UHGV virus genome: UHGV-1550212
Direction: 5' to 3' (one strand)
DNA length: 64,000 nucleotides
DNA from: a virus
Part shown: positions 15,541 through 61,127 of the stretch, in pieces
Position numbering within the stretch: position 1 is the stretch's first letter
How the letters are laid out: each line of letters starts with the position of its first letter
Translations under genes and position numbers: made by a program
The notes under the pieces: model-generated
Told to the model about the DNA's origin: nothing
Databases searched by the model: none
The model's input: only the letters and a program-made list of their open reading frames with translations

Positions 15541-15567
15541 TGTAGTAGAGGTTTGTTGTGTTCTGTA

Positions 15568-15600
15568 TATTATGTTCGAATATATGAGGACATATATTAT
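15568..15600 (-). promoter_or_regulatory. conserved structured leader element, copy 3 (core only)
   Basis: Core TTATGTTCGAATATATGAG(G/A)ACATATATTAT with inverted repeat TATGTTC/GAACATA; in the 5' leader of 15304..15540. Confidence 0.45.
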
Positions 15601-15608
15601 ATATAGAT

Positions 15609-15637
15609 ATATTACAACACGCAAATCATTTTTGCAC
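15609..15637 (-). promoter_or_regulatory. sigma70-like promoter (GTGCAA-N17-TAATAT)
   Basis: Upstream of 15304..15540; the conserved leader element lies between -10 and the ATG. Confidence 0.45.
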
Positions 15638-15663
15638 ACTTTTATAAACCAAATTTCACAAAA

Positions 15664-15969
15664 ATGCAAACACAAGAAGTTTTAGATGCAATTGACATGT
15701 CGCAGTCAGCTCGCAATTATGCGCTTGGCACTGTATGCGATGCAGAAGAGCATGAAGATGCTGTTGAAGCAGTTATCGAAGATTACATGCAAGGCGCAAG
15801 AGAAATGTACGTCAAGCTGACTACATTTGTCAATGTTAATGATGCAGTGCCTGCAAACAACTACCCAGTCATTGCAAAGCTTGCAAATGACTCATATGCA
15901 GTTGCAACGTTTGAAAATGACATGTGGTCTGTCGACAACGTAGTTGCATGGCGCAAGTTGCACATTTAA
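15664..15969 (+). CDS. hypothetical acidic protein
   Basis: One of only three plus-strand genes; followed by a bidirectional hairpin terminator. Confidence 0.5.
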   Translation: MQTQEVLDAIDMSQSARNYALGTVCDAEEHEDAVEAVIEDYMQGAREMYVKLTTFVNVNDAVPANNYPVIAKLANDSYAVATFENDMWSVDNVVAWRKLHI

Positions 15970-15981
15970 GCCCTACAGCAC

Positions 15982-16015
15982 AAAAAAAGTCCGAGCATTG
16001 CTCGGACTTTTTTTG
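15982..16015. terminator. bidirectional intrinsic terminator
   Basis: Stem GTCCGAGC/GCTCGGAC with 4-nt loop, flanked by A7 and T7; sits between convergent genes 15664..15969 (+) and 16032..19373 (-). Confidence 0.65.
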
Positions 16016-16031
16016 TTGTGCATTGATTGGC

Positions 16032-19000
16032 CTATCGAACAATCGATGTAATTGATGCTACTGGTATCGTACCAATGATTGATGTAGTTGAGCGGAAGTC
16101 TGCATAGACTTTAATGTCAAATGTGAACTCCTTGCCACCAATGTAGCATATGAAATTCATTGTTTTTGTGTATGACAGCTTATTTTGCTGAGCATTGCTA
16201 TCAATATCAGATGAACCAACTGCATCAGTCATACGAGCTTGGAACAGCAATGGTATCAACAATGCATTATTTTCGCCAGGCTTAACTACATAAGCTGCAG
16301 AATCAGTGCTATTCGAAACTTGCATTTGATTGACTGCAGTTGGATTCAACAACAAGAATGCACCACGACTATTTGCACCAACTGCATAGACATCATTGTC
16401 TGTGAATGCACATTTAGGTGCGTTTTCTGCAGTAAGTTCAAGTGGCAGAATCTGCTGATACTTTGATTTGATGACAGAATTGAACTTAGCAAGCTCTGCA
16501 AATGCTGCAGTCAATGTTGCTTTTGTTTGTTCATTCTTATTTGCTGAGTATGCAATCCATGCTGGATGCTGAACAGACATCAGATTGTATGCATCTGGTG
16601 ATACTGTCGACTTCAATGCGATTGCTTCATAATCATCGCCATTCTTATGAACGAACTTGCGATTTGCTGCTTGTGCAGAAGTATCAATGTTTTGTGTTTC
16701 TACAGTAGACGATGATGGTGTTTCTGCAGCAACGTACAGCTTTTCTGTGCCTGCTACGTTTTTCAAGCCAGCATACAATGTTTGACCCATGTATTGACGA
16801 GTGCCATACGGTGCTAAGATGTCATTGCTGTCATATGCATCGCTGTTAAGTACAACAGGTACGTCATAGACATCTGCGAAATCTTGCAGCTTGTCTGTAA
16901 TATGCTGTGACAAGTCGCCATGATATCGTGGGTACAATGAGATGTTTTCTGCACCAATGTTGTAGAACTTCAACCAATATTGTCGAGTAAGCACTTTGCC
17001 ATAGTTGTCTGCTGAAGTGATGTCAAACTTATCTGCATAAGTGCCTGCAAACAAAACATTGCTTGACCCATTCAGAATTTCTGTTTGATTGCCCTCATCA
17101 TCTACAATTGCGACTCGAAGCATTGAGCCTTGATTCAAAATGATGTCTTTGAGCTGCGCAACTTCATTGCTAAGCGACAGTAGTTTTTCATATGTAGTCA
17201 CTTTTGCAAGCTCTGATGTGAAGAAGCCTGATGCAATGTTTTGAGCATTGTGGGCGTAGTAGATGTTGTTTTCTGAGAATGCATCTGCAATATGCTTGAT
17301 AAGTCCTTTGTTCTCAAGCATATTTTCAAGAGCCACATTTTGCTTATCAATTGCAAGTTCATCTTTAAGCGTGACGAACATTGCAGAAGCTGCAAGACTT
17401 TCTGGGAACTGAATGCTGACAATGTTTGACCACTCAGACTCATTGAGCACGTTTGGATAGCCTGCTTCACCAATCGCCTTAACGCGGAACTGAACAATCT
17501 CATTAGCAGAAATTGGAATTTCAAGCTGATTGCATGAGATTGCGTCAATTGATTCTGAATTGATTGGCTCCCATTGAATGCTACCATCGACAATGATTTT
17601 GCGACGAAGTGGCGTAAATACTTCATTCCATGTGCTAAATGCTGCTGTCGTAATTGTGCCTGCTGCATTTTCGATGTCAAATGTGTCTGCCTTTGCTACT
17701 GTGCCATTCAATGATGCATATCTGTACTGCACCTTGAATTGCACAATGTTTTGTGCTGCAGTAAACCTACTGATTGCAGGGTCTTGTACCGGTAAGAAGC
17801 CTCGAACTCTGAACTTTGGATTGTACAATGCGTCATATGCAGCACCATTGATATTCAGCATCTCATCAATGATATTTGTGAGTGTTTGCAGTCGTTCTGC
17901 TCTTTGCTGAGTCAATGTAACATATTGTGTAGATGCTTTTTGACGTTCAACGTCATTCTTGAAATTATTTGTATTGAGCTTTGACATCACAGATGCGATA
18001 TCAGAGTCAAGTACCGACATTTCTTGCTGAACTGCTCGTTTTTGATTGTACAATGACAAAATTCGAGATTTGTCAGTGTTGTCAATCAAATGCGTGTTAA
18101 GTTGAATGACTTTGAATGCTTCTGCTGACAATTGTAGACGATTTGGCTTAATTGCATATTGCGATGGCGCAAGCATATCAGTAGTCAATGCTGCAATATA
18201 AGCGCCAATTGATGCGTCGCCATGTGACAACATATACGAGTTTGCATTGACAAGCTCATTTGTTGCAGTACGAATTGTAAGTGTTGCAGTGTCAATCAAA
18301 ACTGCTGGGCTGTACTGAGCTACTGTGTTGTATGCATCATGCACAGGCGACAAGAACAGCACGAATTTTTCAGAATGTCGAAGTGGCACTTCAACGACTT
18401 TTCTAACAACAGGCTCTACAAAGACGAGGTCAGTGACTTCTACATTCAATGCATTCAAGCCTGCAGTACGCTGCAGTATGCATGTTTGTGACAGTTTGTC
18501 AATTGAGACAATTTGCAGTAATACTGAACCAGTCGGGTCTGATAACGTGTCACCGACTTTCAATGTCAGTGAACCGGCAGCCTTTGCGTCAATTGCATCA
18601 TATACAATGCTGTCAAGTTTGACAGCGATTGTGCCATTGTTCGCATTTTGCTTCTTGAGAATTTTGAAGCTGCCACTTGATGCTGCTCGTCGTGGTCGCA
18701 AATTAACTGTGAAGTCTTCAAGAGTATAGTCATCATCAGTATGCCAGCCATGCGCATCAATTTCAGCAAGCAATGCAGCATGGCTCATTTCAATGCCTGT
18801 TTGTGCCACAATTTGCTGCAATGCAGCAAACATGGCGTCTGAGCATATGTACTTTGTAACTTGACATTGTTTAAGATACGATGATGCTTGACCAGTCACA
18901 TCAATTTGCACGTGCATACCAAGCGCTGTTGTGCGTTCAAGCATATCATTGCCAAGTGCGACAACATTGTTATCTTCTGCTATCGTGCCTTGCAAAGTTT

Positions 19001-19373
19001 TCAAAGTCTCAGGCTGATTCAACAAGCTCATATGCACCATTGTACGCATATTGTTGTTTGCATCTACAAGTTGTGCATACAACTGCTCGCCATTATTTAA
19101 GCCTGTCAAGACTTTCATGTTTTGCTCAATGACAGCCATGCGACGTTGAATTGACGCAAAGCTTGGTACAGTAATGCTTGTTGTGCTGCCATCGTCATTT
19201 GTCAATGTTATTGTGACTGTATCTTCTGATGATGACACTGCAGCTTGCAGCACATCAAGGTATTGCAGACTATTGTCATACAGTTGCTTAATGTCTGACA
19301 GCAATTGTTGCATTGCATTTGTTGAAACTTCTGACATATGCTTAAAATGTGGTGTTTGAATATGTACAAACAA
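16032..19373 (-). CDS. large hypothetical protein (1113 aa), possibly virion-associated
   Basis: Long uninterrupted ORF, Ser/Thr/Asn-rich with a central coiled-coil-like stretch; no P-loop or catalytic motif recognised. Confidence 0.6.
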   Translation of the reverse strand: MFVHIQTPHFKHMSEVSTNAMQQLLSDIKQLYDNSLQYLDVLQAAVSSSEDTVTITLTNDDGSTTSITVPSFASIQRRMAVIEQNMKVLTGLNNGEQLYAQLVDANNNMRTMVHMSLLNQPETLKTLQGTIAEDNNVVALGNDMLERTTALGMHVQIDVTGQASSYLKQCQVTKYICSDAMFAALQQIVAQTGIEMSHAALLAEIDAHGWHTDDDYTLEDFTVNLRPRRAASSGSFKILKKQNANNGTIAVKLDSIVYDAIDAKAAGSLTLKVGDTLSDPTGSVLLQIVSIDKLSQTCILQRTAGLNALNVEVTDLVFVEPVVRKVVEVPLRHSEKFVLFLSPVHDAYNTVAQYSPAVLIDTATLTIRTATNELVNANSYMLSHGDASIGAYIAALTTDMLAPSQYAIKPNRLQLSAEAFKVIQLNTHLIDNTDKSRILSLYNQKRAVQQEMSVLDSDIASVMSKLNTNNFKNDVERQKASTQYVTLTQQRAERLQTLTNIIDEMLNINGAAYDALYNPKFRVRGFLPVQDPAISRFTAAQNIVQFKVQYRYASLNGTVAKADTFDIENAAGTITTAAFSTWNEVFTPLRRKIIVDGSIQWEPINSESIDAISCNQLEIPISANEIVQFRVKAIGEAGYPNVLNESEWSNIVSIQFPESLAASAMFVTLKDELAIDKQNVALENMLENKGLIKHIADAFSENNIYYAHNAQNIASGFFTSELAKVTTYEKLLSLSNEVAQLKDIILNQGSMLRVAIVDDEGNQTEILNGSSNVLFAGTYADKFDITSADNYGKVLTRQYWLKFYNIGAENISLYPRYHGDLSQHITDKLQDFADVYDVPVVLNSDAYDSNDILAPYGTRQYMGQTLYAGLKNVAGTEKLYVAAETPSSSTVETQNIDTSAQAANRKFVHKNGDDYEAIALKSTVSPDAYNLMSVQHPAWIAYSANKNEQTKATLTAAFAELAKFNSVIKSKYQQILPLELTAENAPKCAFTDNDVYAVGANSRGAFLLLNPTAVNQMQVSNSTDSAAYVVKPGENNALLIPLLFQARMTDAVGSSDIDSNAQQNKLSYTKTMNFICYIGGKEFTFDIKVYADFRSTTSIIGTIPVASITSIVR

Positions 19374-19400
19374 AAAGACTGCTGCAAATTATTGCAGCAG
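19366..19400 (-). terminator. intrinsic terminator
   Basis: 11-bp stem GACTGCTGCAA/TTGCAGCAGTC with 4-nt loop, then UUUUUGUUU on the minus strand. Confidence 0.6.
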
Positions 19401-19423
19401 TCTTTGATAATTGCTTGTTTATG

Positions 19424-20317: not shown

Positions 20318-20375
20318 GCTTGATAACGTTGAACTTTCATGTGTCTTGTCTATGGTCTACGGTGTGTGAAACACT

Positions 20376-20933
20376 CTACGGTATGATGTTGAAATTGACT
20401 GCAAGCAACAATGATGTGACATCTTCGCCCAATGGAAATGAACCTGTAGTAAAACCAACTGTTTTTGTTTGTGTATATTGGCTGCTCAAATCGAAGTAGT
20501 ATTGTGATGGCGACAATTCTGGTGTAGCATGCGGCTCAGTTTGACCATTTCGAACAACCATCAATCGTACTGGACCATTGAATGTTGCTTTATGATTCGG
20601 CAATGCAGAACCGTTGTAGTTAAGCGACATGTATTGCATCGTAATTCGAATCTGCTCAGCATATGATTTGCTAAGGTCAAGTTGCTGAGTGCCTTGAACA
20701 CGTAGAATACTTGATTGTCCAGATGACTGCCAATTTGCATACACAGATTGCTCGTTGGTCGTTATGATGGCATTGCCATCAATATCGAGTAGTTCAACAG
20801 TCATCTGACCTGTCAAGCTGATTCGATTGCCAAGATTGTTGCCTACTACTGCAATGCTAACTGAAACGGGCTTCAAAGACCCCCCCTGCGCCACATTTTG
20901 TGAACGATAGTGGTCTTGTGTAACTGTTGACAT
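20376..20933 (-). CDS. hypothetical protein with 5' poly-G tract (paralog 1)
   Basis: Track start is a TTG; first ATG at 20933 gives MSTVTQDHYRSQNVAQGGS; a G7 run (coding strand) at 20880-20886 encodes the Gly-Gly. Confidence 0.5.
   Translation of the reverse strand: MSTVTQDHYRSQNVAQGGSLKPVSVSIAVVGNNLGNRISLTGQMTVELLDIDGNAIITTNEQSVYANWQSSGQSSILRVQGTQQLDLSKSYAEQIRITMQYMSLNYNGSALPNHKATFNGPVRLMVVRNGQTEPHATPELSPSQYYFDLSSQYTQTKTVGFTTGSFPLGEDVTSLLLAVNFNIIP
20880..20886 (-). repeat. homopolymeric G7 tract (coding strand) in 5' coding region
   Basis: C7 on plus strand; codons for Gly-Gly at residues 16-17 of 20376..20933. Confidence 0.8.
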
Positions 20934-20980
20934 ATCATAAAGTGTTTTGCGATGATGCAATCCACTTTATGAATGCATCA

Positions 20981-21352
20981 TCAGTTAAATAATGTTTGAA
21001 TTTTTATTGTAACGTCATTGCAGCCTTTTAGCAAGTCGACTTGAATCATATCGACAAATGCTGAACGATAACTTAAACCATTGCTGTACTGAACGTAAAA
21101 GTACTTGATATGCTCCCAATCATTTACGCAAGCTTTCGTAAAGTTATCTGACAACTGAATGCTTGTTGCTGATAGAGTCGTACATGCAACGTACGAATCA
21201 ACAAATATATGCAAGTCATTTACATTGATGTAACCAACGACATCAAGTTGATTTGTAAACGTGCTCAGCGGCAATGTCAGTATGATGTGGCCTAACTTAA
21301 CAGAGCCCCCCGCGTTTTGTGAACGATAGTGGTCTTGAGTAACGTGTGACAT
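20981..21352 (-). CDS. hypothetical protein with 5' poly-G tract (paralog 2)
   Basis: ATG at 21352 gives MSHVTQDHYRSQNAGGS; G6 run at 21306-21311; 5' nucleotides near-identical to 20376..20933. Confidence 0.5.
   Translation of the reverse strand: MSHVTQDHYRSQNAGGSVKLGHIILTLPLSTFTNQLDVVGYINVNDLHIFVDSYVACTTLSATSIQLSDNFTKACVNDWEHIKYFYVQYSNGLSYRSAFVDMIQVDLLKGCNDVTIKIQTLFN
21306..21311 (-). repeat. homopolymeric G6 tract (coding strand) in 5' coding region
   Basis: C6 on plus strand; residues 15-16 of 20981..21352. Confidence 0.8.
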
Positions 21353-21383
21353 ACTGTAATGAAATTGTTTGTTTGAATATGTA

Positions 21384-21995: not shown

Positions 21996-21996
21996 A

Positions 21997-28788: not shown

Positions 28789-29010
28789 TTAAGCTTCTTT
28801 GAAATTCAAGCAATTATTGAACCAGAGTTCTTCTGAAATCGTAAGCTCCAATTCAAAGCAGTTATTCTTGATGAAGTCGGTCGGGTCATAATTGAAATAC
28901 ACATATTCACCTGAATAGTGAAAAGGCTGTTCCATAGCAATCAATGCGAACATTAAACGGTCAATGTCCTTTTTATTGCCGTATGCTACGTAAACTTTAA
29001 TCTGTTTCAT
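28789..29010 (-). CDS. hypothetical small protein
   Basis: 73-aa ORF with promoter at 29040-29068 and the shared AAAACCTCTACAACA-ATG initiation context. Confidence 0.4.
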   Translation of the reverse strand: MKQIKVYVAYGNKKDIDRLMFALIAMEQPFHYSGEYVYFNYDPTDFIKNNCFELELTISEELWFNNCLNFKEA

Positions 29011-29039
29011 TGTTGTAGAGGTTTTATATTATATATTAA

Positions 29040-29068
29040 TATATTACAACATTTGTTGTCAATTTGCA
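29040..29068 (-). promoter_or_regulatory. sigma70-like promoter (GTGCAA-N17-TAATAT)
   Basis: Upstream of 28789..29010. Confidence 0.45.
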
Positions 29069-29100: not shown

Positions 29101-29135
29101 AAAAAAATAAAGGCTCAGTTTGTATAACTGAGCCT
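29101..29135 (-). terminator. intrinsic terminator
   Basis: 8-bp stem AGGCTCAG/CTGAGCCT with 9-nt loop, U-rich tail; downstream of thyA. Confidence 0.55.
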
Positions 29136-29155
29136 CTTGAAATGACACGAACTTA

Positions 29156-32779: not shown

Positions 32780-32827
32780 TCTAAATGAGATTTAGATTAT
32801 GTTCGAATATATGAGAACATATATTAT
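32779..32827 (-). promoter_or_regulatory. conserved structured leader element, copy 1
   Basis: ~48-bp element with two inverted repeats (ATGTTC-N10-GAACAT and CTAAAT-CTC-ATTTAG) ending at the ATG of the Rad3/DinG-like helicase. Confidence 0.5.
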
Positions 32828-38800: not shown

Positions 38801-39730
38801 TGACTTGATTTTGATTTTGTTGATGCGACCAGGATTGATGAGTGCAATCTTATCTGTTTTGATGTCATTGTCAATTGTGATTGTATGATAATGCACAAGC
38901 TGCTCAAGCGAATGCCACTCTACTACAATTCGCTTGTTGTCAATATCGATGTCAAGCAAGTTGTAGCCATGTTCTGCAGTGCCCTGTTGCGTTGCAGTGT
39001 CATTCAACAAATAGTCGCCTTCACCAAAATCTCTGACAATTGGCGAGCCGCAGTATGTCAATGTCTTGGTGCCAGAAGTCCATATTGCATGTTTGTGAAT
39101 ATCACCCATTGCAACAAAGTTGCTGTGAAACTGTGTTGCATCTATACGACTGTCATTGTCACCACGAACAATGCAGTCATCAAAGTTGACGCAATTCTTT
39201 ACAGGGTCATGGAACAGCTCAATAACACACATTGATGACAATGCAGCAATCTGCGATTCGTCAAGTGATGCCCAAGGCGAATATGTGCCACCAGACCACT
39301 TCTCATTTTGAGCCCATACTGCAGCAGCAAAACCAGGTGCAAGCAGTTCAACTCTTGAACTGTTGATATACTTGATTCGCTTGTCATCAATTGCAGTTAC
39401 AAGCTTGTCAATGCTATCTGTCCACTGCATTTGTGAACCATCACCAGCATCAAATGTGTTATCACGTTGCTTCAAATCATGATTGCCAGCAGTAATGACA
39501 ATTTGAAGCTTGTCATTGACTTCAAGCATGCCTTTGAGCAGCTTAACAAACAGCGACTCTTCAAGTGAATTGCTGTTCCACTGCTCAAACACATCGCCAA
39601 CAATAAACACAAACTCAACCGACTTTGCTTTGTCAATTAGTTGTTTGTTGATGTGCTCATATTCTACGAAACGTCGTAAATGCCCTTGTCGAACATTATA
39701 TTGAATGTCTGCTATGTGAAGTGCTTTCAT
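35804..39730 (-). CDS. fused SbcD-SbcC (Mre11-Rad50-like) nuclease/ATPase
   Basis: N-terminal calcineurin-like phosphoesterase motifs (HIADIQ, IVGDVFE, TAGNHD, GDIHKH); Walker A GNNGNGKTT; long coiled coil with CPVC zinc hook; C-terminal LLIDE Walker B. Confidence 0.8.
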   Translation of the reverse strand: MKALHIADIQYNVRQGHLRRFVEYEHINKQLIDKAKSVEFVFIVGDVFEQWNSNSLEESLFVKLLKGMLEVNDKLQIVITAGNHDLKQRDNTFDAGDGSQMQWTDSIDKLVTAIDDKRIKYINSSRVELLAPGFAAAVWAQNEKWSGGTYSPWASLDESQIAALSSMCVIELFHDPVKNCVNFDDCIVRGDNDSRIDATQFHSNFVAMGDIHKHAIWTSGTKTLTYCGSPIVRDFGEGDYLLNDTATQQGTAEHGYNLLDIDIDNKRIVVEWHSLEQLVHYHTITIDNDIKTDKIALINPGRINKIKIKSKVTKPELSGIVERIAQNLVSSYVVAAIDILYDSAVIDSINAVDANGDNLLQKVQTAEWLKDAALDWVNAYIERNAIVATEDAQQFVDMFKSLIDEQIDKLSFDTEVAKYVIQNVKANQFMALKDVDVSFDNLAQLTQVRGNNGNGKTTIFRLIKWLLTGFIDAGQSSAATKQNALTYFNDKLIDNESYDKLEASCVFVHVVAGQNVHYKLTRTLERRFKRGSRINADGSWRDNVSAVNETVQLVRLSDDYVVPQHEIKDTLYAIFGSIWELSRYVCINQTLLDQIIAMDSNSLNDWLLDTLGINTFVQLGNSNDAAKAALFDGLSKPALTDVAIKAELESLNTTCNELNDSLQLRQDNQREWSAKLTKARAKVEELSKRLHQIPADILTVEDATANVDSIVAKIRKVELDIAALALQDMSKLQTVKAQIEQQLTNIDNEANAAYTNVIASGSQLHNTYAELLTKQNELSAKVQKEVAHAESLYRTKLDESKLAYDAAKQRIDSVLVNLGKSYNADTRAKIDALQKQIEDINTVQNALRTEVSAAKTNIDNVIDKQKQLENDKCPVCTNDLTSGTGQAYKLWLSTELAKLRQEYAQKTEQFNENVVKIGNLKYEIEQLQAAIIDVTDSNAIIAALNTAHKAAYDMHAEKLNDLQRTVVNAQRDLDAFIAQPMATAATLLEVEAVKTQIADITNQLADIKRKAEQAKQDVLQSKSAVESELAAINAELEIAQAEYDKKASYESTLKQLEIDKTAAAFALEHAQQTQQHIVANAALQVDIDDAKQHETEANSKLLSINAEIATMQADLSANNVRIEALKKDLQASKKWNIANLVYNAYKQCTSKRGLVSYVFAAIATSLNAQLNDLLDSLNYRVFFDINDNNVLKMIDLMGSKSIRSVSQMSGMEGTFAGLAIVHLILTQRLNKVGNILLIDEISGKLSNGQIVGAEHDVNTINYQQVLMQLLTKLSAIRKTLIVDHVLQQDEFDSALTVVANTDGTSSIC

Positions 39731-39731
39731 A

Positions 39732-39781
39732 TTCTAAATGAGATTTAGATTATGTTCGAAATATATGAGAACATATATTAT
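39732..39781 (-). promoter_or_regulatory. conserved structured leader element, copy 2
   Basis: Near-identical to the 32779-32827 copy (one A insertion); immediately upstream of the SbcD-SbcC ATG. Confidence 0.5.
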
Positions 39782-43284: not shown

Positions 43285-43422
43285 TTATATCATATCTACA
43301 CACAAAGCAAATGCTACTGCAAGTGCAGCCATAATTGCATATACGACTATCGATGCAATATAATCTGATTCAGGATTCCACTTATCAGGTGTGTTAAGCT
43401 TGTGATACTTGTCTCGTCTCAT
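43285..43422 (-). CDS. possible small membrane protein (45 aa)
   Basis: Hand-translated MRRDKYHKLNTPDKWNPESDYIASIVVYAIMAALAVAFALCVDMI; sits just downstream of a terminator-like hairpin; below the track length cutoff. Confidence 0.25.
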   Translation of the reverse strand: MRRDKYHKLNTPDKWNPESDYIASIVVYAIMAALAVAFALCVDMI

Positions 43423-43430
43423 CTTGAGTC

Positions 43431-43481
43431 AAAAAATGATGGCTGCTGCTACATTTTGTGAAATCATGTGCAGCAGCCATC
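43431..43481 (-). terminator. terminator-like hairpin (possible attenuator or sRNA 3' end)
   Basis: 12-bp perfect stem GATGGCTGCTGC/GCAGCAGCCATC with 20-nt loop, followed by UUUUUU on the minus strand; lies ~55 nt downstream of a promoter. Confidence 0.5.
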
Positions 43482-43530
43482 TGGCAGGTTTCTTGCTTTG
43501 TAAAGCTTGGATAGAGGATGGATTTTATAT
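43431..43530 (-). ncRNA. candidate ~100-nt small RNA or transcription attenuator (speculative)
   Basis: Defined only by promoter (-10 at 43537-43542) upstream and a strong hairpin/U6 terminator at its 3' end; no sequence family recognised. Confidence 0.2.
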
Positions 43531-43536
43531 GTTGAT

Positions 43537-43565
43537 ATTGTACAACATGCAAAATGCATTTGCAT
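43537..43565 (-). promoter_or_regulatory. sigma70-like promoter (ATGCAA-N17-TACAAT) with adjacent 17-bp tandem repeats
   Basis: Followed ~55 nt downstream by the terminator-like hairpin 43438-43481. Confidence 0.4.
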
Positions 43566-43594
43566 TTTGATACAACATGCATTTTGATACAACA
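43561..43594. repeat. perfect 17-bp tandem direct repeat x2 (TGCATTTTGATACAACA)
   Basis: Read directly; overlaps the -35 region of promoter 43537-43565, next to an AAAATGCA-TT-TGCATTTT palindrome. Confidence 0.7.
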
Positions 43595-43601
43595 TATATT
43601 G

Positions 43602-43817
43602 TCATTTTGCACAGTCTGAGGCAATCAAATCTTTGTCAAAGCATTCATCTATAATGTCTTCAATAAGATACGCTTCGACATTGTTAAGCTTCAAGATATC
43701 TACGAGTTTTGCTTTGATATCGCAAGCTAATGCAGATTCAACTGTATGCAATATGACTGATGATGCGACATGCTTGTCTGTCATCATTTGTAATTGCTGT
43801 GGTGTTACTCTACTCAT
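43602..43817 (-). CDS. hypothetical small protein
   Basis: 71-aa ORF with 4-nt overlap to the upstream kinase gene. Confidence 0.35.
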   Translation of the reverse strand: MSRVTPQQLQMMTDKHVASSVILHTVESALACDIKAKLVDILKLNNVEAYLIEDIIDECFDKDLIASDCAK

Positions 43818-54553: not shown

Positions 54554-55684
54554 CTACTTGAGCCCGTTGATGAATGCTTCAGTTTCAGCATCCATCGTTG
54601 CTGCTGCAGGTGCTGCTGCCGGAGCTGCTGCAGGTGCAGGTTCTGGTGCAGGCGCTAAAGCTGCTGCAAACGGGTCAATGGCTGTCTGAGCTGCTGGTGC
54701 AGTAGCAGGCGCAGCTGCCTGAGCTGTTGCAGGTGCAGGCTGAGTAGTCTGTGCCTGCTGAGCTGCTGACGAATTGATGACAATGTCAGGCCAGATATCC
54801 GACACATCCTTGTAGTTAGCAAGGCGCATCTTAACCTGACGCTTGATGTCATCAGAAGCTTCGTGGTAGCCCCACTCCTTTTCGACATTCGGGTACTCCT
54901 TGAGCATGTCGACAATCTGCTGCATAATTTGCTGCTTGTATGCAGGGTCAGTGTCATACTTCGCCTGGTCAACAAGCGTGCCATCTGCAAGCAGCATCGA
55001 CGATACGTTGGGCGAAATCGTCGAAGTCTCGTAGTCACGCATTTCAACGCCATTGACGTCTTTCAGCGTAATCTTCAAGAGAATGTCGTGGCCCTTAACG
55101 GGATGGAACATGTCCATAGGCTGAGCACCCATCTGGATGTCTTCGTCGGTAGGCTTCATTGCAGACATGCAACGCTTGTAGATGGCTGCAGGGAGTCGAT
55201 ATGGGAGTACTTTCCCAACGTTCTCAGGGTGCACTGAATCAGCCTTGATTTGCACGAGGCAAGTGTACTGACTCTGCATGCTGAACTCTCGCTTTGCAAG
55301 CGCTTCCTGCTGAGCATCCTTGGTATTGATGAGTTCCCAGTAGAATGCCGAAATGGGACACCATCCATAGGGCTTCATCAAATTTTCAGGATTTTCAGGA
55401 TGCGGATTCGGCGAGCTCGGCGAATTGTAGCGGAAGCCCTGATTAGCGCCAGTGCCAAACCAGTAGTAACGGACGATTGAAATCGGCACCGCGGGGTCAT
55501 TCAAGTTCGGCAGAATTCGAATGACTGCTCGATAGATTCGGTCCTTACTTTCGGAAGGCTTAGGATTAAAAAACTCAGGTCCTGCAGAACGTTCCGGCTT
55601 AGCAAAGCTTGCTACATTGTCCGGCTGGACATCAAAGATTGACAGCGGCTGATTACCGGTCTGCCCATTTTCAATTTGTGACAT
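54554..55684 (-). CDS. hypothetical protein with Ala/Pro-rich low-complexity C-terminal region
   Basis: 376 aa; visibly GC-richer codon usage than neighbours; C-terminal (AP/AAP)n linker then a short conserved-looking tip; possible abundant DNA-binding protein. Confidence 0.5.
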   Translation of the reverse strand: MSQIENGQTGNQPLSIFDVQPDNVASFAKPERSAGPEFFNPKPSESKDRIYRAVIRILPNLNDPAVPISIVRYYWFGTGANQGFRYNSPSSPNPHPENPENLMKPYGWCPISAFYWELINTKDAQQEALAKREFSMQSQYTCLVQIKADSVHPENVGKVLPYRLPAAIYKRCMSAMKPTDEDIQMGAQPMDMFHPVKGHDILLKITLKDVNGVEMRDYETSTISPNVSSMLLADGTLVDQAKYDTDPAYKQQIMQQIVDMLKEYPNVEKEWGYHEASDDIKRQVKMRLANYKDVSDIWPDIVINSSAAQQAQTTQPAPATAQAAAPATAPAAQTAIDPFAAALAPAPEPAPAAAPAAAPAAATMDAETEAFINGLK

Positions 55685-55771: not shown

Positions 55772-55800
55772 ATTGTATAACATGCAAAGTACTTTTGCAC
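55772..55800 (-). promoter_or_regulatory. sigma70-like promoter (GTGCAA-N17-TACAAT)
   Basis: Upstream of 54554..55684 with ~87-nt leader. Confidence 0.5.
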
Positions 55801-56967
55801 TTATCTTGCATGACCACAGTCATCTGCAAGCAGTTTAGCATGACCGCAGTCATATACTGCAACATAACCGACGTCAATCATCTCTTGTTCATCTTGACCG
55901 ATATCTTCAATATGTTCTTTTGTCTTCAAATGACACCAGTGCTTATGAATGGTTGACTTGTCATCTGACAACTGCGGGTTGAGCGCGAAGTCAGCTGAGT
56001 CTACTTGTTCACCTGCAAGATGCTTTCTAATGGCGTCAATGACTTCGTTGTCATCCATCCATTCGAATATTGTAATGCAAGTGTAGCCATGCTTAAGAGC
56101 AAGTTGAGTTTTGTCGAAGTGGTAGAATTTGCCAACTGGCTTATTGTGTTTTGTGCGCCCAGTTAAATATGCAAAGCCATATGTTGCATTGTGTGACCAA
56201 AGAGGATTAACTTCAATCAAAAGTTTGCAGTATTCATTACAATAGTCAAGGTCATATGACCATCGCCCAAGATTGACATTATCAAGCCCGCAATCAATAC
56301 CAAGTTCTTGCAGCAATTTGTCGTGCCACCAATGGTTTGCTCGTGATTTTACATGACCTTGAGCATCACGGCATTTAGTAGTCATACAAAACCATGGCAC
56401 ACCATGTCGTTCCATATTGACTTCTTGAACGCGTTCAAGATTGCCGCTCTTATTGCCATAACGTTGCTGTTTTGTTTGCAATGCAGCATCAATATTGCCC
56501 CATGCATTGCCATATCGTTTTACAACAGTTTGTTTGCGTTTTTCAACATCACAGCACTTATTGCCATATTTACGCAATTTAGTGTCAAATGCTTTTTGTG
56601 TATTGCCTATGCCACGTTTGCCCCATTTGCGCTCTTTGCCTTGTTGACATCGTTCTTGGTCACCCCATGTGCTGCCATATCGTTCTAAATTTGTTTGTCT
56701 ACGTTTTTCAACATTGCCTGCTTTGCATCCATGTCGTGCTAAATTTGTTTGTTGTTGTTTAGCTACGCAATCTTTGTTACGTGCAGGAAATTCAACGCCT
56801 AATGAACGTAGACAGCCAATTCTACGATTATAATTACGTTTAATATTGCCGTGTGATGTTTTACAAGGCCCATATCTTACAAACTCAGTTGTTCTCAACA
56901 ACTCATCTCGCTCTTGCTCAAGCTCTGCAATGCGCTTCTCAAGAGCTTCACCAGTTAGTGGCGTCAT
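55801..56967 (-). CDS. tandem-repeat protein (RYG/KYG units) with C-terminal nuclease-like domain; paralog of 1777..2976
   Basis: Same architecture: LTGEALEKRIAELEQERDELL coiled coil, repeats (ARHGCKAG, ERYGSTWG, KYGNKCC, RYGNAWG, RYGNKSG), C-terminal LLIEVNP...H. Confidence 0.55.
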   Translation of the reverse strand: MTPLTGEALEKRIAELEQERDELLRTTEFVRYGPCKTSHGNIKRNYNRRIGCLRSLGVEFPARNKDCVAKQQQTNLARHGCKAGNVEKRRQTNLERYGSTWGDQERCQQGKERKWGKRGIGNTQKAFDTKLRKYGNKCCDVEKRKQTVVKRYGNAWGNIDAALQTKQQRYGNKSGNLERVQEVNMERHGVPWFCMTTKCRDAQGHVKSRANHWWHDKLLQELGIDCGLDNVNLGRWSYDLDYCNEYCKLLIEVNPLWSHNATYGFAYLTGRTKHNKPVGKFYHFDKTQLALKHGYTCITIFEWMDDNEVIDAIRKHLAGEQVDSADFALNPQLSDDKSTIHKHWCHLKTKEHIEDIGQDEQEMIDVGYVAVYDCGHAKLLADDCGHAR

Positions 56968-57719
56968 TTCACTTCAGGTTTTGCTTGCTTGGCCAACTCA
57001 GCTTCAGCATTGAACTCTTTGCCCTCAGCTTTCATTGTTTCAGCATAAGTCTTTTCATCAGTGTAACGTTCTACGCCATCACCAAGCAGTTTTGCAACTT
57101 CATCATCTGCTTCAAACAATGGCTGTGGATTGTCATCATTGTCATCTTTGAGTTGCTCAAATGTGCTGTTATGCTTTTCTGCAATTTTGATGAGGTCAAC
57201 GATTGAACGAGTTACGAGTTCACCATTGATGCCTGACTGTTGTTCAGATTGACCAGTGCCTTGTTGCAATTCTGCTTGAGTTGCTCGAACATTATTATTG
57301 AGTGATGCAAGTACATTGGGAAGAGTTCGACAATATGATATATATTGCTGAACCAACGACATTGCATCATTCTGCAGTTTGATGAGAAACGCAAACTCAC
57401 CCATGCCTCCGCCTTGTGCATCAATGCGCTCGAATACTGAATCAAGTGCATGCATTGCATAGAACACTTGTTTGCAAAGTAAATTGATGTTTGTCTTCTC
57501 CATCTCAATTGATGCATCGATAAATGGCGACTTAACATCTGCTGCTATGCACAATTTGCGAACTTCATCAACGTATTTTGAACACTTGTCAAGTGTCTTG
57601 TCAAGTTTGCTTCGGTCAAACTGCTTGTAAACTTCTAACGCATCGCTTACTTCTGCAGCATCCAATATTGCATTTGCTGCAGCCAATTCTGATTCTCTGC
57701 TCATCTCAAAATGGTCCAA
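56964..57719 (-). CDS. hypothetical acidic protein
   Basis: 251-aa ORF with ATGA overlap to the upstream gene. Confidence 0.45.
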   Translation of the reverse strand: MDHFEMSRESELAAANAILDAAEVSDALEVYKQFDRSKLDKTLDKCSKYVDEVRKLCIAADVKSPFIDASIEMEKTNINLLCKQVFYAMHALDSVFERIDAQGGGMGEFAFLIKLQNDAMSLVQQYISYCRTLPNVLASLNNNVRATQAELQQGTGQSEQQSGINGELVTRSIVDLIKIAEKHNSTFEQLKDDNDDNPQPLFEADDEVAKLLGDGVERYTDEKTYAETMKAEGKEFNAEAELAKQAKPEVK

Positions 57720-58315
57720 GCTTCAATAATTGCTGAAAAATCTTCAAATGACATCGTAGTATAGCCTGCGTCGCCCCAAGATACACCCCAGCTATTCTTG
57801 ATGATGAATGCGTCTTTTGTGTAGCCCACAATTGACACTGCATGACCACCAAAATTACCATCGCCTTTCCAGAAATGCTCAGCTTCAATGTCTTTTACGA
57901 GCATGCCAACAAATACAGGCCCATTTGCCACAACAGCAGATTTGACTTCATCAATTGTGTAACAACGTCTATATGCAGTTATTGGCAATTGCTCTGAGCC
58001 CTTTGACATCTTGATTGGCTGCGCTTTGAGCAACTTAAAGACGTCACGTGGAATCATGCCCTCTTGAGGCGCATTTGAACGACGCTCATACAATGCTTTG
58101 ATGTCAAGCTTGCCTTGCATAGACAGCACAGAAGACCACCAGTCAATCATTGTTGCTGCTGTGTAAGCTGCACACATTGATGTACTGCCTTGGTCTTCTA
58201 CTTGAAGTTGAGCCAACTTGTACACAAGTGGCAAATCAGTTTTTGCATCAAAACGCAAGTCTCTGTCATCTTTAGGTGACTGGATGTAGCCCAGTCCATA
58301 TGTTGTATGTTTCAT
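57701..58315 (-). CDS. papain-like (C1 family) cysteine peptidase
   Basis: Catalytic-triad contexts QGSTSMCAAY (Cys), GGHAVSIVGY (His), IKNSWGVSWGDAGY (Asn-Ser-Trp). Confidence 0.65.
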   Translation of the reverse strand: MKHTTYGLGYIQSPKDDRDLRFDAKTDLPLVYKLAQLQVEDQGSTSMCAAYTAATMIDWWSSVLSMQGKLDIKALYERRSNAPQEGMIPRDVFKLLKAQPIKMSKGSEQLPITAYRRCYTIDEVKSAVVANGPVFVGMLVKDIEAEHFWKGDGNFGGHAVSIVGYTKDAFIIKNSWGVSWGDAGYTTMSFEDFSAIIEAWTILR

Positions 58316-58330
58316 ATCAGATAATGTATC

Positions 58331-58603
58331 TCATTGCTCATGCCAGTGCCTTGTCAAGTCAAACATTGCTTCACGTTGCGCCTTTGTGCATTTCGTAGTA
58401 CCTTCCACAGCTGTAATATCGAATGTAGCATAATTGCTCAAGTTCTGCAACTGGGTCATATGCAAGACTAATTGGCATATTGTATGCGTCAACAACTCTG
58501 GTTTGAGCTTTTGCAACAATATGTCAGCAGTTTTGCTATGTTCAGCAAAGTCACAGTAGGTGACTTGGCCTGATGGGCTTAACCAGCAAGATTGCATTGT
58601 CAT
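58331..58603 (-). CDS. hypothetical small protein
   Basis: 90-aa ORF. Confidence 0.35.
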   Translation of the reverse strand: MTMQSCWLSPSGQVTYCDFAEHSKTADILLQKLKPELLTHTICQLVLHMTQLQNLSNYATFDITAVEGTTKCTKAQREAMFDLTRHWHEQ

Positions 58604-58974
58604 TCATTTGGTTGAGGCTCAATTCGCATAACTACACGCACAGAATCTCTGTAAGGATACACTGATGCGACAATCAAATACCAACGTTTGTTGTCAACTT
58701 TGCCATTTGACTTAATGTATGGCGCTGAAGTAGTAATGTATCGAGCATGTTTGAATGTCGTATCTACTCTTGCAACAAGACAGGTAGAATCAGTCACTTG
58801 AGCATGCCACACATCAATTTCTGGTAAATACGTGTTATGAGCATTGCATACACTATCAACAAATTCTCGTGGTTGCAAAGTGACAGTTGACACATATGTT
58901 GGCTTAACTGCAGCGCATGCAATGCATACAATTGCAATGAACAACAATGTAAATCGTTTCATATTCTTAGACAT
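58600..58974 (-). CDS. putative lipoprotein
   Basis: N-terminal MKRFTLLFIAIVCIACAA signal with lipobox-like Cys. Confidence 0.45.
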   Translation of the reverse strand: MSKNMKRFTLLFIAIVCIACAAVKPTYVSTVTLQPREFVDSVCNAHNTYLPEIDVWHAQVTDSTCLVARVDTTFKHARYITTSAPYIKSNGKVDNKRWYLIVASVYPYRDSVRVVMRIEPQPNE

Positions 58975-59236
58975 TTTGTAGTTCTACAATATCATATCGC
59001 TTATGCAATTCAGACCAGTCATGAACGTAGCCTGTCATAAAGACGTGCAACATGTGTGGCTTGTTGTCAGCATACTTGACTGCACCTGCAGCATCTTTGA
59101 TTTGCTTGGCTGTTAGCCAAACTTCTGCATTGTTGTTTGCATACACGCAACGATACACCGGTTCTGATAATTCAGTCACTGTGATTTTCTTGCCATTGCG
59201 AAGTATGCATCGTACTTGTTTGTCCATTGCTTGCAA
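58967..59236 (-). CDS. hypothetical small protein
   Basis: 89 aa; shares a C-terminal GYV..W.EL...Y pattern with 59551..59745. Confidence 0.4.
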   Translation of the reverse strand: MQAMDKQVRCILRNGKKITVTELSEPVYRCVYANNNAEVWLTAKQIKDAAGAVKYADNKPHMLHVFMTGYVHDWSELHKRYDIVELQNV

Positions 59237-59257
59237 TTTATGATATTGTTAAGATAT

Positions 59258-59554
59258 CTACAAAAAGCAATACACCATAAAACCCAAGAACATAATTATT
59301 GCAGGCTGCATGATGCAATACATAAAGAAGTGTGCAGCAATCGGCAATTCACTGAACTTGTTAAATGCGTCATGATTCTTGAACAATGTCAGTACAAATG
59401 ATATCCCAATTGCATGCTTAAGCGATAACGCAGTCAATGCGGGCCACACAGGCATCACAAACCACTCCCAGAAGTTCATAATAATGCAGCCATTCAGAAT
59501 GTAGCCTAACAGCATGAACATAATGCATGCAACAGTTGTCAGAAAGTTTTTCAT
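59258..59554 (-). CDS. membrane protein
   Basis: 98 aa, three hydrophobic helices. Confidence 0.4.
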   Translation of the reverse strand: MKNFLTTVACIMFMLLGYILNGCIIMNFWEWFVMPVWPALTALSLKHAIGISFVLTLFKNHDAFNKFSELPIAAHFFMYCIMQPAIIMFLGFMVYCFL

Positions 59555-59745
59555 ATACGCTCAAGTTTTATGATGTCAGTTCTTAATGATTTGTATACAG
59601 CAAATAATTCAGTCCAGCCTCGTACATAACCAACGCCGATTACATGCAATGCGTGTGCATCTGGTTTTGTATGGCAATGTCTTGCATGAGGCTGCTGTTC
59701 AAGTTCTGCTTGTGTAAGATAAACCTTTGATGTGTCATCATACAC
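59551..59745 (-). CDS. hypothetical small protein
   Basis: 64-aa ORF; track start is GTG, true start uncertain; weak paralog of 58967..59236. Confidence 0.3.
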   Translation of the reverse strand: MYDDTSKVYLTQAELEQQPHARHCHTKPDAHALHVIGVGYVRGWTELFAVYKSLRTDIIKLERI

Positions 59746-59972
59746 AAAGCATGGAAATACTGGCTATGCAAGTTCTGTTATGTCAATGTCTTGGCCATTA
59801 GATAGCCTTGCAAGATATAATGTGTTAGTTTGCATATTACATTGAGATATTAAGAATTCGCTTGACTACAGAATCGATATCATTGTTTACAGAATTGCGC
59901 AGTTACATGTGAACATTAGAATCAATGAACAAGTTATGAAACGTTGACGCAGCTTGAACAACTTGTTCGATT

Positions 59973-60263
59973 TTATGCTCGTACGAGTTTGATGACACAG
60001 TGCCGACAAGCTGCAAAAGTACTCAATATTGTTTCTACTTTGACACTGTACTGCACGTCAATGACACGATATGTGCCACACAATGCAGACATTTCTTGAC
60101 GACGTTCTGCAGGTACATTGACACTGTCTGTCAAATTGATGATTGCGCCAATCTGCATAGATGACATGACTGCAAATTGTTCGGGACCTACTTCTGCTTT
60201 GCGATATGCGACTTGTTTGTTGTTTTCGCAAATGCTGAATGCTACTATATAATCTGGTGTCAT
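59973..60263 (-). CDS. hypothetical small protein
   Basis: 96-aa ORF. Confidence 0.35.
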   Translation of the reverse strand: MTPDYIVAFSICENNKQVAYRKAEVGPEQFAVMSSMQIGAIINLTDSVNVPAERRQEMSALCGTYRVIDVQYSVKVETILSTFAACRHCVIKLVRA

Positions 60264-60275
60264 GATAGTCGCGTT

Positions 60276-60755
60276 TTATTCATTATCGTCATCATATCCT
60301 ATGCAATCTTCAAGACTTGCAAAGTCATCATCAAAGTCATCGAATTCAGGCTCTTTATTGCACCATTTGTAAGGTGGATTGTTGAGCAATTCAAGCTCTA
60401 TTGCATTTGACTGTGCAGAAATCGGAACATATTCGAATGCTTTGACTGACATGTTAAATTTGATACAATGCAGCCACGGAAACATATCAGTGTCCTCATG
60501 CACAATTGGCTGACGAACGTAGTCTTTCATTGCAATGAACTTGCTGCTGTCGTCCCAGTCTTCAATAGGTATTTCAAACTGCGATATGACAGTATGACAG
60601 CTTTCAAAGAAATTGCAGGATACACCTACAATAACATGAGAGTCTGTACGTTGGCGTTCTATTGCAAGAAAGTCATATTTCTTAGAAAGACGAACTTCTC
60701 CATGCTTCTCTAAGAAGATTTTAAGAAGCTCTTTGTTAATGTCGTTGATGTTCAT
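60276..60755 (-). CDS. hypothetical protein with strongly acidic C-terminus
   Basis: 159 aa ending EFDDFDDDFASLEDCIGYDDDNE. Confidence 0.45.
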   Translation of the reverse strand: MNINDINKELLKIFLEKHGEVRLSKKYDFLAIERQRTDSHVIVGVSCNFFESCHTVISQFEIPIEDWDDSSKFIAMKDYVRQPIVHEDTDMFPWLHCIKFNMSVKAFEYVPISAQSNAIELELLNNPPYKWCNKEPEFDDFDDDFASLEDCIGYDDDNE

Positions 60756-60777
60756 TGTTGTAGAGATTTTAAGTTGT

Positions 60778-61089
60778 TTAATGCCGAGTTTTTGCAGATA
60801 TAGCTACTTTAATTGTTGCTTTAATTTGTTCGATTGCATCTTGTGAGAACAATTCTGACACTGCTAAATAGTGATACCATGATGTTGGCGCTGCCTGCAT
60901 ATCAGTTCGTTTAATTGCGAACCGAAGTTCTTTTGGTGAACCAAGGCAACCCATATATTGGCAGCTTATTAGCTTAACTTGCACATTGTTAATGCTGCTA
61001 TGAATAGCAAGATGAGACAGATTTATTCTGTCATAGAATTTTAGATGCTTGAGTTGTTTTTCAATTGCTTTGAATGTGTTTGTGTTCAT
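60778..61089 (-). CDS. hypothetical protein
   Basis: 103-aa ORF with promoter at 61128-61156 and the shared initiation context. Confidence 0.4.
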   Translation of the reverse strand: MNTNTFKAIEKQLKHLKFYDRINLSHLAIHSSINNVQVKLISCQYMGCLGSPKELRFAIKRTDMQAAPTSWYHYLAVSELFSQDAIEQIKATIKVAISAKTRH

Positions 61090-61127
61090 TGTTGTAGAGG
61101 TTTTATATCATATATTGATATATGATA

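Follow-up and report, generated by a model that had tools for sequence, protein, structure and literature searches.

Translation initiation independent of a Shine–Dalgarno (SD) sequence is already known in the Bacteroidia, whose A-rich translation-initiation regions (TIRs) have been studied in the Flavobacterium johnsoniae model (Baez et al. 2019, PMC6847099; Jha et al. 2020, PMC7797042). In that bacterium, A at positions −3, −6, −12 and −13 was measured to be a positive determinant of initiation (PMC6847099). A second precedent is furnished by the PeSL (promoter-early stem-loop) cassettes of T4-like phages (Arbiol et al. 2010, PMC2839356; Comeau et al. 2014, PMC4122927), which end in a ribosome-binding site and the start codon of ORFans (PMC2839356). 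Here we describe a 15-nt leader that directly precedes the start codons of four small ORFan genes in UHGV-1550212, analyzed over a stretch of 64,000 nucleotides (hereafter the window). The PeSL cassette is its closest analogue. The 18-mer formed by the leader and the start codon is probably the ribosome-loading end of a 5′ leader, namely an SD-less TIR of the Bacteroidia type that has been copied to four ORFans.

We inspected about 74 kb of DNA from a genome of ~176 kb, the likely source of which is a T4-like phage from human-gut metagenomes. Its T4-like assignment comes from the presence of gp32, gp13, gp2 and Portal_T4 domains, and the contigs originate from human-gut metagenomes. Homologs of an encoded 1113-aa protein are found in phages of Chryseobacterium, Tenacibaculum, Flavobacterium and Prevotella, and an adjacent IS1595 transposase is closest to versions from Alistipes (79%) and other Bacteroidota; the sequence thus places the host, as we infer, in the phylum Bacteroidota. 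A megablast search with 12 kb against the GenBank phages returned zero matches.

The leader repeat and its four copies

On the minus (coding) strand, the leader AAAACCTCTACAACA-ATG abuts the ATG of four ORFs exactly, with 0, 0, 1 and 2 mismatches at the copies designated B, D, C and A, respectively (Table 1). On the plus strand the 18-mer reads CATTGTTGTAGAGGTTTT, and the CAT of each match corresponds to the start codon of an ORF on the minus strand (4/4); a search of both strands of the window with up to three mismatches yielded no further match. The earlier note had described the sequence as recurring at four gene starts: all four are real, and "recurs" is slightly generous in that just two are exact. 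The span 15541–61107 merely brackets the four sites, with nothing continuous filling it. An Rfam scan of the whole window gave zero families at the gathering score, nor did a conserved structure emerge.

Table 1. Coordinates of the leader copies and of the elements found upstream of them.
Feature	Sequence	Position	Strand	Remark
Leader copy A	CAAACCTCTACTACA+ATG	15538..15555	minus	2 mismatches; starts 78-aa ORFan 15304–15540
Leader copy B	AAAACCTCTACAACA+ATG	29008..29025	minus	exact match; starts 73-aa ORFan 28789–29010
Leader copy C	AAAATCTCTACAACA+ATG	60753..60770	minus	1 mismatch; starts 159-aa ORFan 60276–60755
Leader copy D	AAAACCTCTACAACA+ATG	61087..61104	minus	exact match; starts 103-aa ORFan 60778–61089
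Promoter-like motif of copy A	TGCAAA-N16-TAATAT	15609..15636	minus	68 nt before ATG
Promoter-like motif of copy B	TGCAAA-N16-TAATAT	29041..29068	minus	30 nt before ATG
Promoter-like motif of copy D	TGCAAA-N16-TATAAT	61128..61155	minus	38 nt before ATG
Intrinsic-terminator-like hairpin	12 pairs + T run	29109..29137	minus	ends thymidylate synthase gene
AT-rich palindromic block at B		29026..29040	minus	promoter hexamer to leader B; forms inner hairpin
AT-rich block at D		61105–61127		like that of B
Extra hairpin module	AATATATG-TCCT-CATATATT, then CGAACATAAT	15569..15600	minus	between promoter A and leader A

All leaders of the window are A/C-rich, and the motif also turns up elsewhere: a metagenome scan with the 17-mer returned 120 rows, among which homology is confined to L027, L033 and L115, the remaining ~117 being unrelated contigs that match by chance, and an IMG/VR scan with the exact 18-mer found one true relative and three chance matches. 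The four copies might accordingly be ascribed to chance, or to convergence under selection for a favorable A/C-rich leader without any copying. We regard this as exceedingly improbable. First, the four observed matches to CATTGTTGTAGAGGTTTT stand against 0.19 expected by chance, and at least four were reached in 0/100 window shuffles. Second, when the 15 nt before the ATG were compared across the 57 genes of the window (1596 pairwise comparisons), the six pairs among leaders A–D proved to be the six best, with 12–15 of the 15 positions identical versus 11/15 for the runner-up. The observed identity was never attained in a column-permutation control of 300 runs, which gave a mean of 0.35 pairs with at least 12 identical positions, a maximum of four such pairs, and never more than 13/15. 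Third, the likeness of leaders B and D extends over 44 nt at 91% identity, from the AT-rich block into the first codons, and thus runs into the promoter-proximal block. The identity of the leaders exceeds what TIR composition allows, which therefore marks them as copied sequence.

Initiation context and variation between strains

An SD core 4-mer is present in 2/57 window leaders, compared to 4.9% of random 17-mers, and so lies at background. A is abundant and G scarce in all window leaders, with A peaking at −12 to −14. The missing SD is hence a property of the whole window, which fits a phage of Bacteroidota as the source. The earlier note's description of a shared, A-rich leader with CCUCU and without an SD is borne out: the leader runs right up to the start codon, and CCUCU shares the sense of the anti-SD core CCUCC, which precludes pairing with the anti-SD. 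The distinct mechanism that it proposed for these genes is not supported, the SD being absent window-wide and the A-rich context being general and known in Bacteroidia.

The similarity to the Bacteroidia TIRs encompasses the absence of an SD, the A residues at −3, −6, −12 and −13 (in all four copies versus 6/53 of the other genes), an A-run at about −15 to −12, and little predicted structure near the AUG, with the rest of the window sharing the same profile. On a profile trained on the remaining 53 genes, the copies rank 4, 5, 7 and 10 of 57, with copy D in the tenth place by PWM. In the predicted MFE folds, no base of the motif is paired at A, C or D; at B, weak pairing involves its 3′ end and the AUG. 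The in silico stability of none of the four leader folds is above shuffles. Two differences set the phage leader apart: a single 15-nt, phage-encoded version is near-exactly repeated at four genes, and its CCUCU tract lies outside the general profile. The CCTCT core is likewise unaccounted for by the TIR profile of the window. Judged by the comparison of all gene starts that the earlier note had called for, the exact motif is no general start-codon context: it is found at 4/57 genes, and CCTCT shows no enrichment among the remaining 53. The leader may give efficient translation. It is a strong yet ordinary case of the host's SD-free start signal, and nothing indicates a new initiation mechanism.

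The CCUCU tract nevertheless raises the question of whether the leader is a dedicated cis-element, be it the operator of a phage regulator or an enhancer read by the SD-blind Bacteroidia ribosome or bS1; we deem this unlikely. T4-like phages encode RegA, which binds A/U-rich TIRs, and the RegA operators of T4 are A/U-rich, overlap the start codons of certain early genes, and subject them to joint post-transcriptional control. Taken as the operator for a phage RNA-binding regulator, e.g., a RegA-like translational repressor, the leader would co-regulate a few ORFans, and its identity beyond TIR composition would be explained; yet a PHROGs scan of 30 small proteins from the window found no RegA-like family, and the leader drifts between strains. 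In a relative with 95% identity to the window, the core CCTCTAC (TCTCTAC at C) is constant at 4/4 sites, leader B is unchanged, and at site A the motif still abuts the ATG although a 6-nt indel directly follows, all of which would suit an operator. Against this, the four sites together show five changes in 72 nt, a value not below the ~5–6% divergence of the aligned regions, and site C varies among strains at −3 (A/G/T) and −8. Further, in relatives with 49–56% protein identity, no leader copy occurs within four mismatches on the coding strand. The regulator is, therefore, a rather unlikely explanation. L027, L033 and L115 were picked by the exact motif and therefore cannot speak for conservation at sites B and D, and contig L013 (81% identity) stops before the site A orthologue, and is uninformative there.

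Promoter-like motif and cassette organization

Upstream of the leader at A, B and D, at 30–68 nt before the ATG, lies a promoter-like motif, TGCAAA-N16/17-TAHWWT; its 14 matches in the window, where 1.97 were expected, all lie on the minus (coding) strand. Relatives with ~50% protein identity also have its core in front of genes. Judged by its consensus, the motif may be a promoter, from which the leader would be transcribed. The motif is unlike the host-type Bacteroidetes −7 element TAHHTTTG, which is itself not enriched (15 on the coding strand versus ~16 expected, mostly intragenic); it is therefore not of the host sigma-A type. A tblastn search of the window and its flanks with the MA9V-1 sigma factor found no phage sigma factor. 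In generic sigma-70 and terminator scans, the promoter-like matches were not above shuffles, and these scans are useful only for individual terminators. The T4-type late promoter TATAAATA, considered as a candidate, is absent at the leader sites and upstream of the structural genes.

Other elements accompany the promoter-like motif to a varying extent. A clear terminator hairpin is found upstream at B alone among the four copies, just upstream of promoter B; at A and D, which are divergent intergenic regions, a terminator stem-loop is absent. Folding identified inner AT-rich palindromes downstream of the −10-like hexamer, and the extra hairpin module at A is common to the leaders of the genes starting at 39730 and 32779. 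Copy C lies inside the 22-nt gap after the stop codon of gene D and lacks a separate promoter-like motif. Based on these arrangements, we propose that at A, B and D the leader would form the 3′ terminus of a larger, modular cassette for expression, with the order: optional terminator, promoter-like TGCAAA-N16-TAHWWT, AT-rich palindromic block, leader and ATG. At C, only the leader and the first codons would have been copied, before the second gene of the D–C pair.

Two further readings involve the promoter region. The leader motif could act in DNA, either as an inverted second promoter core, to which a dimeric transcription factor would bind, or by belonging to the promoter or the initially transcribed region, with transcription rather than translation being co-regulated. 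Indeed, the reverse complement of the leader, ATTGTTGTAG, equals the 10-mer directly upstream of the −10-like hexamer at D; dyad symmetries abound in the promoter regions, e.g., TTGTACAA and GTGCAAA...TTTGCAC in the relative L008; and ATAAAAC, a part of the leader motif, is also present in a fifth promoter-proximal leader, that of gene 49235. However, the spacing of motif and ATG is unchanged at the promoterless copy C, and the promoter-to-ATG distance varies (30, 38 and 68 nt), whereas the motif-to-ATG distance is always zero. The motif is in a fixed register with the start codon, and a role at the RNA level, in translation, is therefore favored; action in DNA is distinctly unlikely.

In T4, the start codons of genes e, soc and I-TevI are sequestered in read-through transcripts. 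The leader might similarly constitute the 3′ arm of a hairpin with its 5′ arm, TTGTTGTAG, in the promoter, such that read-through RNA hides the start codon and translation proceeds only from promoter-initiated transcripts. Promoter-region RNA folds contain a stem of ATTGTTGTAG with CTACAACAAT at D (10 pairs, z = −2.15, equaled in 2/200 shuffles) and one of TGTTGTA with TACAACA at B (7 pairs), but the fold at B does not stand out from shuffles (z = −1.09), at A the leader remains free and the 5′ arm has another partner, and at the promoterless C the pairing is absent. Moreover, in L006 and L033 the 5′ arm TTGTTGTAG is changed to AATTTGTAG or TTTTTGTAG without compensation, bringing the stem down to 6 pairs, and the promoter consensus GTTGTA together with an ACAAC-rich leader yields an inverted repeat automatically. 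We hence consider such sequestration very unlikely as a whole, and retain the copied, SD-less TIR as the preferred interpretation.

ORFans downstream and the spread of the cassette

The four downstream genes have no Pfam or PHROG families. The product of gene A is predicted to be a two-helix membrane protein of 78 aa, and this gene differs from its counterpart in the relative by 13 synonymous and 4 non-synonymous codons. The similarity among the four loci ends at the ATG or within the first few codons, and the leader fronts four mutually unrelated genes with an A/C-rich, unstructured TIR lacking an SD. Paralogy of the four proteins was considered, and none was detected (best pairwise BLASTP E-value 0.22). 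ORFans A and B, along with the genes next in line, are absent from the ~50%-identity relatives, and are situated between syntenic core genes, namely those for ThyA, an RNase T-like protein, the 1113-aa protein, a 189-aa protein and the exonuclease part of PolB, which keep their order around them.

These features parallel the PeSLs in several ways: both are short, repeated intergenic cassettes in a T4-like genome, the PeSLs combining a terminator stem-loop with a promoter; the 3′ end of the cassette is the ribosome-binding site and start codon, mainly on ORFans inserted among core genes; and a consensus promoter-like motif, here a predicted promoter at A, B and D and not at C, is repeated in the orientation of the genes. 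There are also clear differences. The promoter-like consensus of this phage is TGCAAA-N16-TACAAT, an SD-less leader stands in place of the SD, and the terminator stem-loop is found at only 1/4 copies, with one copy being promoterless. Further, PeSL-type recombination (cassette indels or mini-circles) was not seen at the leader sites. Between the window and the 95%-identity relative there are four rearrangements, at 20318–21383, ~59955 (at an 8-bp direct repeat within a gene), ~10092 and beyond 62494, and 0/4 are at a leader copy. By analogy with the PeSLs of T4-like phages, the copies may have arisen through recombination or cassette spread.

The leader raises no new question on translation initiation. 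As a compact leader of natural origin, accompanied by a candidate family of phage promoters, it may support strong expression without an SD in gut Bacteroidota, for which good expression parts are scarce, although its practical value is modest. If it were a dedicated cis-element after all, this T4-like phage of gut Bacteroidota would jointly control the translation of a small ORFan regulon, possibly one for host takeover. More generally, T4-like phages of Bacteroidota may fit new ORFans with ready-made expression modules, as their coliphage relatives do with PeSLs, the modules suggested here having the SD exchanged for the A-rich leader required by Bacteroidota hosts.

The repeated leader and the genes behind it

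The plus-strand sequence CATTGTTGTAGAGGTTTT is exact at 29008 and 61087, has one mismatch at 60753 and two at 15538, and no further match with up to three mismatches was found on either strand of the window. Dinucleotide-preserving shuffles gave a chance expectation of 0.19 matches, four being reached in 0 of 100. Read on the minus strand, which carries nearly all of the long ORFs, it becomes AAAACCTCTACAACA-ATG, with the ATG being the ORF start in all four copies (A–D). When the 15 nt upstream of the ATG were compared pairwise across 57 ATG-started genes (1596 pairs), the top six pairs were the six among genes A–D, at 12–15 of 15 positions identical. Thus, the recurrent leader at four gene starts that the earlier note described is borne out.

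Coordinates of the leader-headed ORFs and of other features in the window and in related contigs
Feature	Coordinates	Strand	Remarks
ORF A	15304-15540	minus	78 aa, opened by ATG of leader copy A
ORF B	28789-29010	minus	73 aa, opened by ATG of leader copy B
ORF C	60276-60755	minus	159 aa, opened by ATG of leader copy C
ORF D	60778-61089	minus	103 aa, opened by ATG of leader copy D
PolB exonuclease-domain gene	10096-11601	minus	
PolB polymerase-domain gene	6510-7802	minus	
388-aa gene	55801-56967		weak DUF7487 match
gp32-like ssDNA-binding protein gene	54554-55684	minus	Ala/Pro-rich repeat at 54575-54739
775-nt segment missing from the window	about 59955	minus	L006 10804-11579 in the relative
ORF	around 59973-60263		apparent remnant in decay
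Bidirectional terminator	62460-62491		
IS1595-family transposase	L014 669-1589		just past window end
Promoter-like family	3490-61155	minus	diverged extra copies near 8806-8833 and 43583-43614
Perfect TAHHTTTG	61146, 55790, 32856	plus	reverse complement of TGCAAA box
Plus-strand gene islands	15664-15969, about 61216-62435	plus	adjoin leader copies A and D
Promoter copy without adjacent ORF start	43537-43564	minus	
Hairpin region	about 43425-43564	minus	
45-aa ORF	43285-43422		
Second common leader	39731-39775, 32780-32825	minus	ATATGTTCTCATATATTCGAACATAATCTAAATCTCATTTAGA-ATG
Its hairpin/dyad part in ORFan A leader	15569-15600		
Tandem-unit leaders in relatives	L008 4800-4845, 8820-8893, 1960-2005; L009 4430-4483; L012 7890-7924		

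None of genes A–D matched Pfam or PHROGs, and no paralogy was detectable among their proteins. Gene A, which codes for a two-helix membrane protein, has 13 synonymous versus four non-synonymous codon differences from the 95%-identity relative (IMGVR_UViG_3300045988_149023), and genes B, C and D show relaxed evolution. The ~50%-identity relatives keep the core order of ThyA, RNase T-like protein, 1113-aa protein, 189-aa protein and the exonuclease part of the family-B DNA polymerase (PolB), and lack ORFans A and B along with the small genes behind them; thus, the leader-headed genes are lineage-specific insertions between core genes.

The phage codes for a T4-like replication set (gp32-like protein, split PolB, two helicases, SbcC/D-like nuclease and thymidylate synthases), with T4 gp2, gp13 and T4-type portal domains in the window flanks; a nucleotide search of GenBank phages with 12 kb found no match. 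Homologs of the 1113-aa protein (23–31% identical) occur in phages of Chryseobacterium, Tenacibaculum, Flavobacterium and Prevotella (Lak phages) and in Sphingomonas phage PAU. Human-gut metagenome assemblies contain identical or near-identical contigs of about 176 kb, and the IS1595 transposase beside the right end of the window is closest to those of Alistipes (79%), Dysgonomonas, Myroides and Prevotella. Therefore, the host is most likely a gut member of Bacteroidota.

Several side observations concern the genome itself. Between the two PolB parts lie dUTPase-like, MazG-like and unknown genes; after the exonuclease part, the 95%-identity relative has an extra ~1.2 kb insertion, 290 nt of which are similar to the 388-aa gene of the window, and in a ~50%-identity relative that position is occupied by a TnsA-like endonuclease gene. 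The low-complexity stretch of the gp32-like gene consists of GCTGCTGCAGG-type 12–18-nt repeats. The 775-nt segment present in the relative is flanked by an 8-bp direct repeat, GTTCAAGC, and the window has a stop codon in place of a sense codon of the relative. Collinearity with this relative ends at the bidirectional terminator; beyond 62494 the present strain has a BNR-like 333-aa gene followed by the transposase.

Initiation without a Shine-Dalgarno sequence

Any four-nucleotide Shine-Dalgarno (SD) core between −20 and −4 is found in just two of the 57 leaders, equal to the 4.9% of random 17-mers. A makes up 44% of the leaders and G 12%, and in the profile of the 53 genes other than A–D, A reaches a frequency of 0.56–0.63 at −12 to −14, with G depleted at all positions. 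Ribosome profiling and reporter mutagenesis in Flavobacterium johnsoniae showed A at −3, −6, −12 and −13, plus low structure, to be positive determinants (PMC6847099), and in Bacteroidota the ribosome keeps its anti-SD sequestered (PMC7797042). Each of these four positions is an A in the repeated leader, whose copies score 4th, 5th, 7th and 10th of 57 on a log-odds profile derived from the other 53 genes and fall in the top 1.3% among all ATGs of the strand. Predicted folds leave the motif unpaired at copies A, C and D (at B, the 3′ end and AUG are weakly paired), with stability beyond that of shuffles at none. As a translation signal, the motif agrees in every testable respect with a Bacteroidia-type SD-independent translation-initiation region (TIR).

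The CCUCU core is unable to pair with the anti-SD core CCUCC because both have the same sense, in keeping with the earlier note's reading of the shared leader as SD-less. As one of two options beside a common RNA-binding regulator, that note had also suggested a distinct initiation mechanism, which does not hold up against random-level SD cores and a window-wide A-rich profile. Judged from these leaders, the lack of an SD extends across the whole window and matches the SD-independent initiation of Bacteroidia; it follows that the "distinct" mechanism would be the ordinary one of this host group, with the four leaders as apparently good examples of it.

TIR composition is, nevertheless, insufficient to account for their near-identity. 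When each alignment column was permuted among genes, keeping the TIR profile exactly, a mean of 0.35 pairs (maximum 4) reached at least 12/15 identity and none exceeded 13/15, versus six observed pairs and a best identity of 15/15. Likeness between the leader-headed loci ends at the ATG or inside the first four codons. Taken with the non-paralogous proteins, this indicates that the leader was copied independently of the genes.

The promoter-like motif and the larger module

The motif TGCAAA-N16/17-TAHWWT, recovered by repeat finding and pattern search (usual form ...GTTGTACAATAT), matches 14 times, always on the coding strand, versus 1.97 expected on both strands; 13 of these sites are intergenic. 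It lies 68, 30 and 38 nt upstream of the ATG of leader copies A, B and D, respectively, and is missing at C, which sits in a 22-nt gap behind gene D. B and D have 44 nt in common at 91% identity (family D6), from an AT-rich palindromic block after the hexamer to the first codons, and a strong terminator hairpin closing the thymidylate synthase gene precedes the motif of B. Copy A has an extra hairpin module between motif and leader, which the SbcC-like and helicase genes also have in their leaders (family D16), and C–D likeness extends from −16 to about +12. The motif core recurs upstream of genes in relatives with a 49–56% identical 1113-aa protein, and is therefore a putative regulatory element conserved across the clade. 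It does not fit the host-type −7 element TAHHTTTG, itself not enriched on the coding strand, and the family differs from the Bacteroidetes sigma-A consensus TTTG/TAnnTTTG. The distant relative MA9V-1 encodes a sigma factor (PMC10537231), of which no homolog was found in the ~74 kb inspected.

An action of the leader at the DNA level is disfavoured, as its register is fixed to the ATG rather than to the promoter-like motif, which copy C lacks altogether. In T4, there is an arrangement whereby the start site is hidden in read-through transcripts. Here, the promoter arm would pair with the leader: with the whole promoter region of D folded as RNA, TTGTTGTAG pairs with CTACAACAA over 10 pairs (z = −2.15), and weaker pairing is predicted at B. 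However, neither A nor C shows such pairing, and other strains have mutations in the 5′ arm of the hairpin without compensation, leaving this reading with a low probability.

In the promoter-like family (TGCAAA-N16/17-TA(C)AAT), GTTG usually precedes the hexamer and an AT-rich palindrome follows. Some regions with a plus-strand TAHHTTTG may be divergent promoters; the window has only two plus-strand gene islands. The promoter copy without an adjacent ORF start is followed by ~85 nt ending in a long hairpin, GATGGCTGCTGCA...TGTAGCAGCAGCCATC plus ATTTTTTG. This region, without an Rfam match and with a 5′ part, AAAATCCATCCTCTATCC, similar to the leader motif, is a candidate for a small RNA or an attenuator preceding the 45-aa ORF. 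The second common leader, which heads the SbcC-like nuclease (1308 aa) and helicase (625 aa) genes, could be an operator or RNA hairpin. In ~50%-identity relatives, leaders downstream of the promoter motif often hold two to three tandem 13–22-nt units (e.g., ATGTCAACAACATCATTATAAC twice), which could be regulator binding sites.

Conservation and relation to known elements

The 95%-identity relative has each of the four copies at the orthologous position, with 3, 0, 1 and 1 changes; the total of 5/72 nt is no better than the ~5–6% divergence over aligned regions. At copy A, a 6-nt in-frame indel directly follows the ATG, with the motif still adjoining it, and copy C varies in three further strains at −3 (A, G or T) or −8. 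The 49–56%-identity relatives have no copy at up to four mismatches (coding strand, 12–23 kb each), their leaders being different sequences, often in tandem repeats. A metagenome scan for the 17-mer gave mostly chance matches and three true relatives, which, being selected by the motif, are uninformative on conservation at B and D. This pattern fits a leader that is useful yet replaceable better than an operator under strict recognition. For the reading as an operator of a RegA-like protein, a search of 30 small window proteins gave no candidate. The probability that the CCUCU core is a dedicated regulatory site is small. An Rfam scan for known RNA families gives no match.

As a genomic element, the leader works like the promoter-early stem-loop (PeSL) cassettes of T4-like coliphages and vibriophages, whose terminator/promoter modules recur and end with the ribosome-binding site and the start codon of variable-region ORFans (PMC2839356, PMC4122927). 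It is not a clear PeSL member because only one of four copies has a stem-loop, one lacks a promoter, the promoter consensus is unlike that of PeSLs, and no indel between close relatives maps to any copy. The repeat is real, and it has an ordinary explanation: a near-optimal leader without an SD was copied, with or without a promoter, before four ORFans specific to this lineage, in a T4-like phage that most likely infects gut Bacteroidota.
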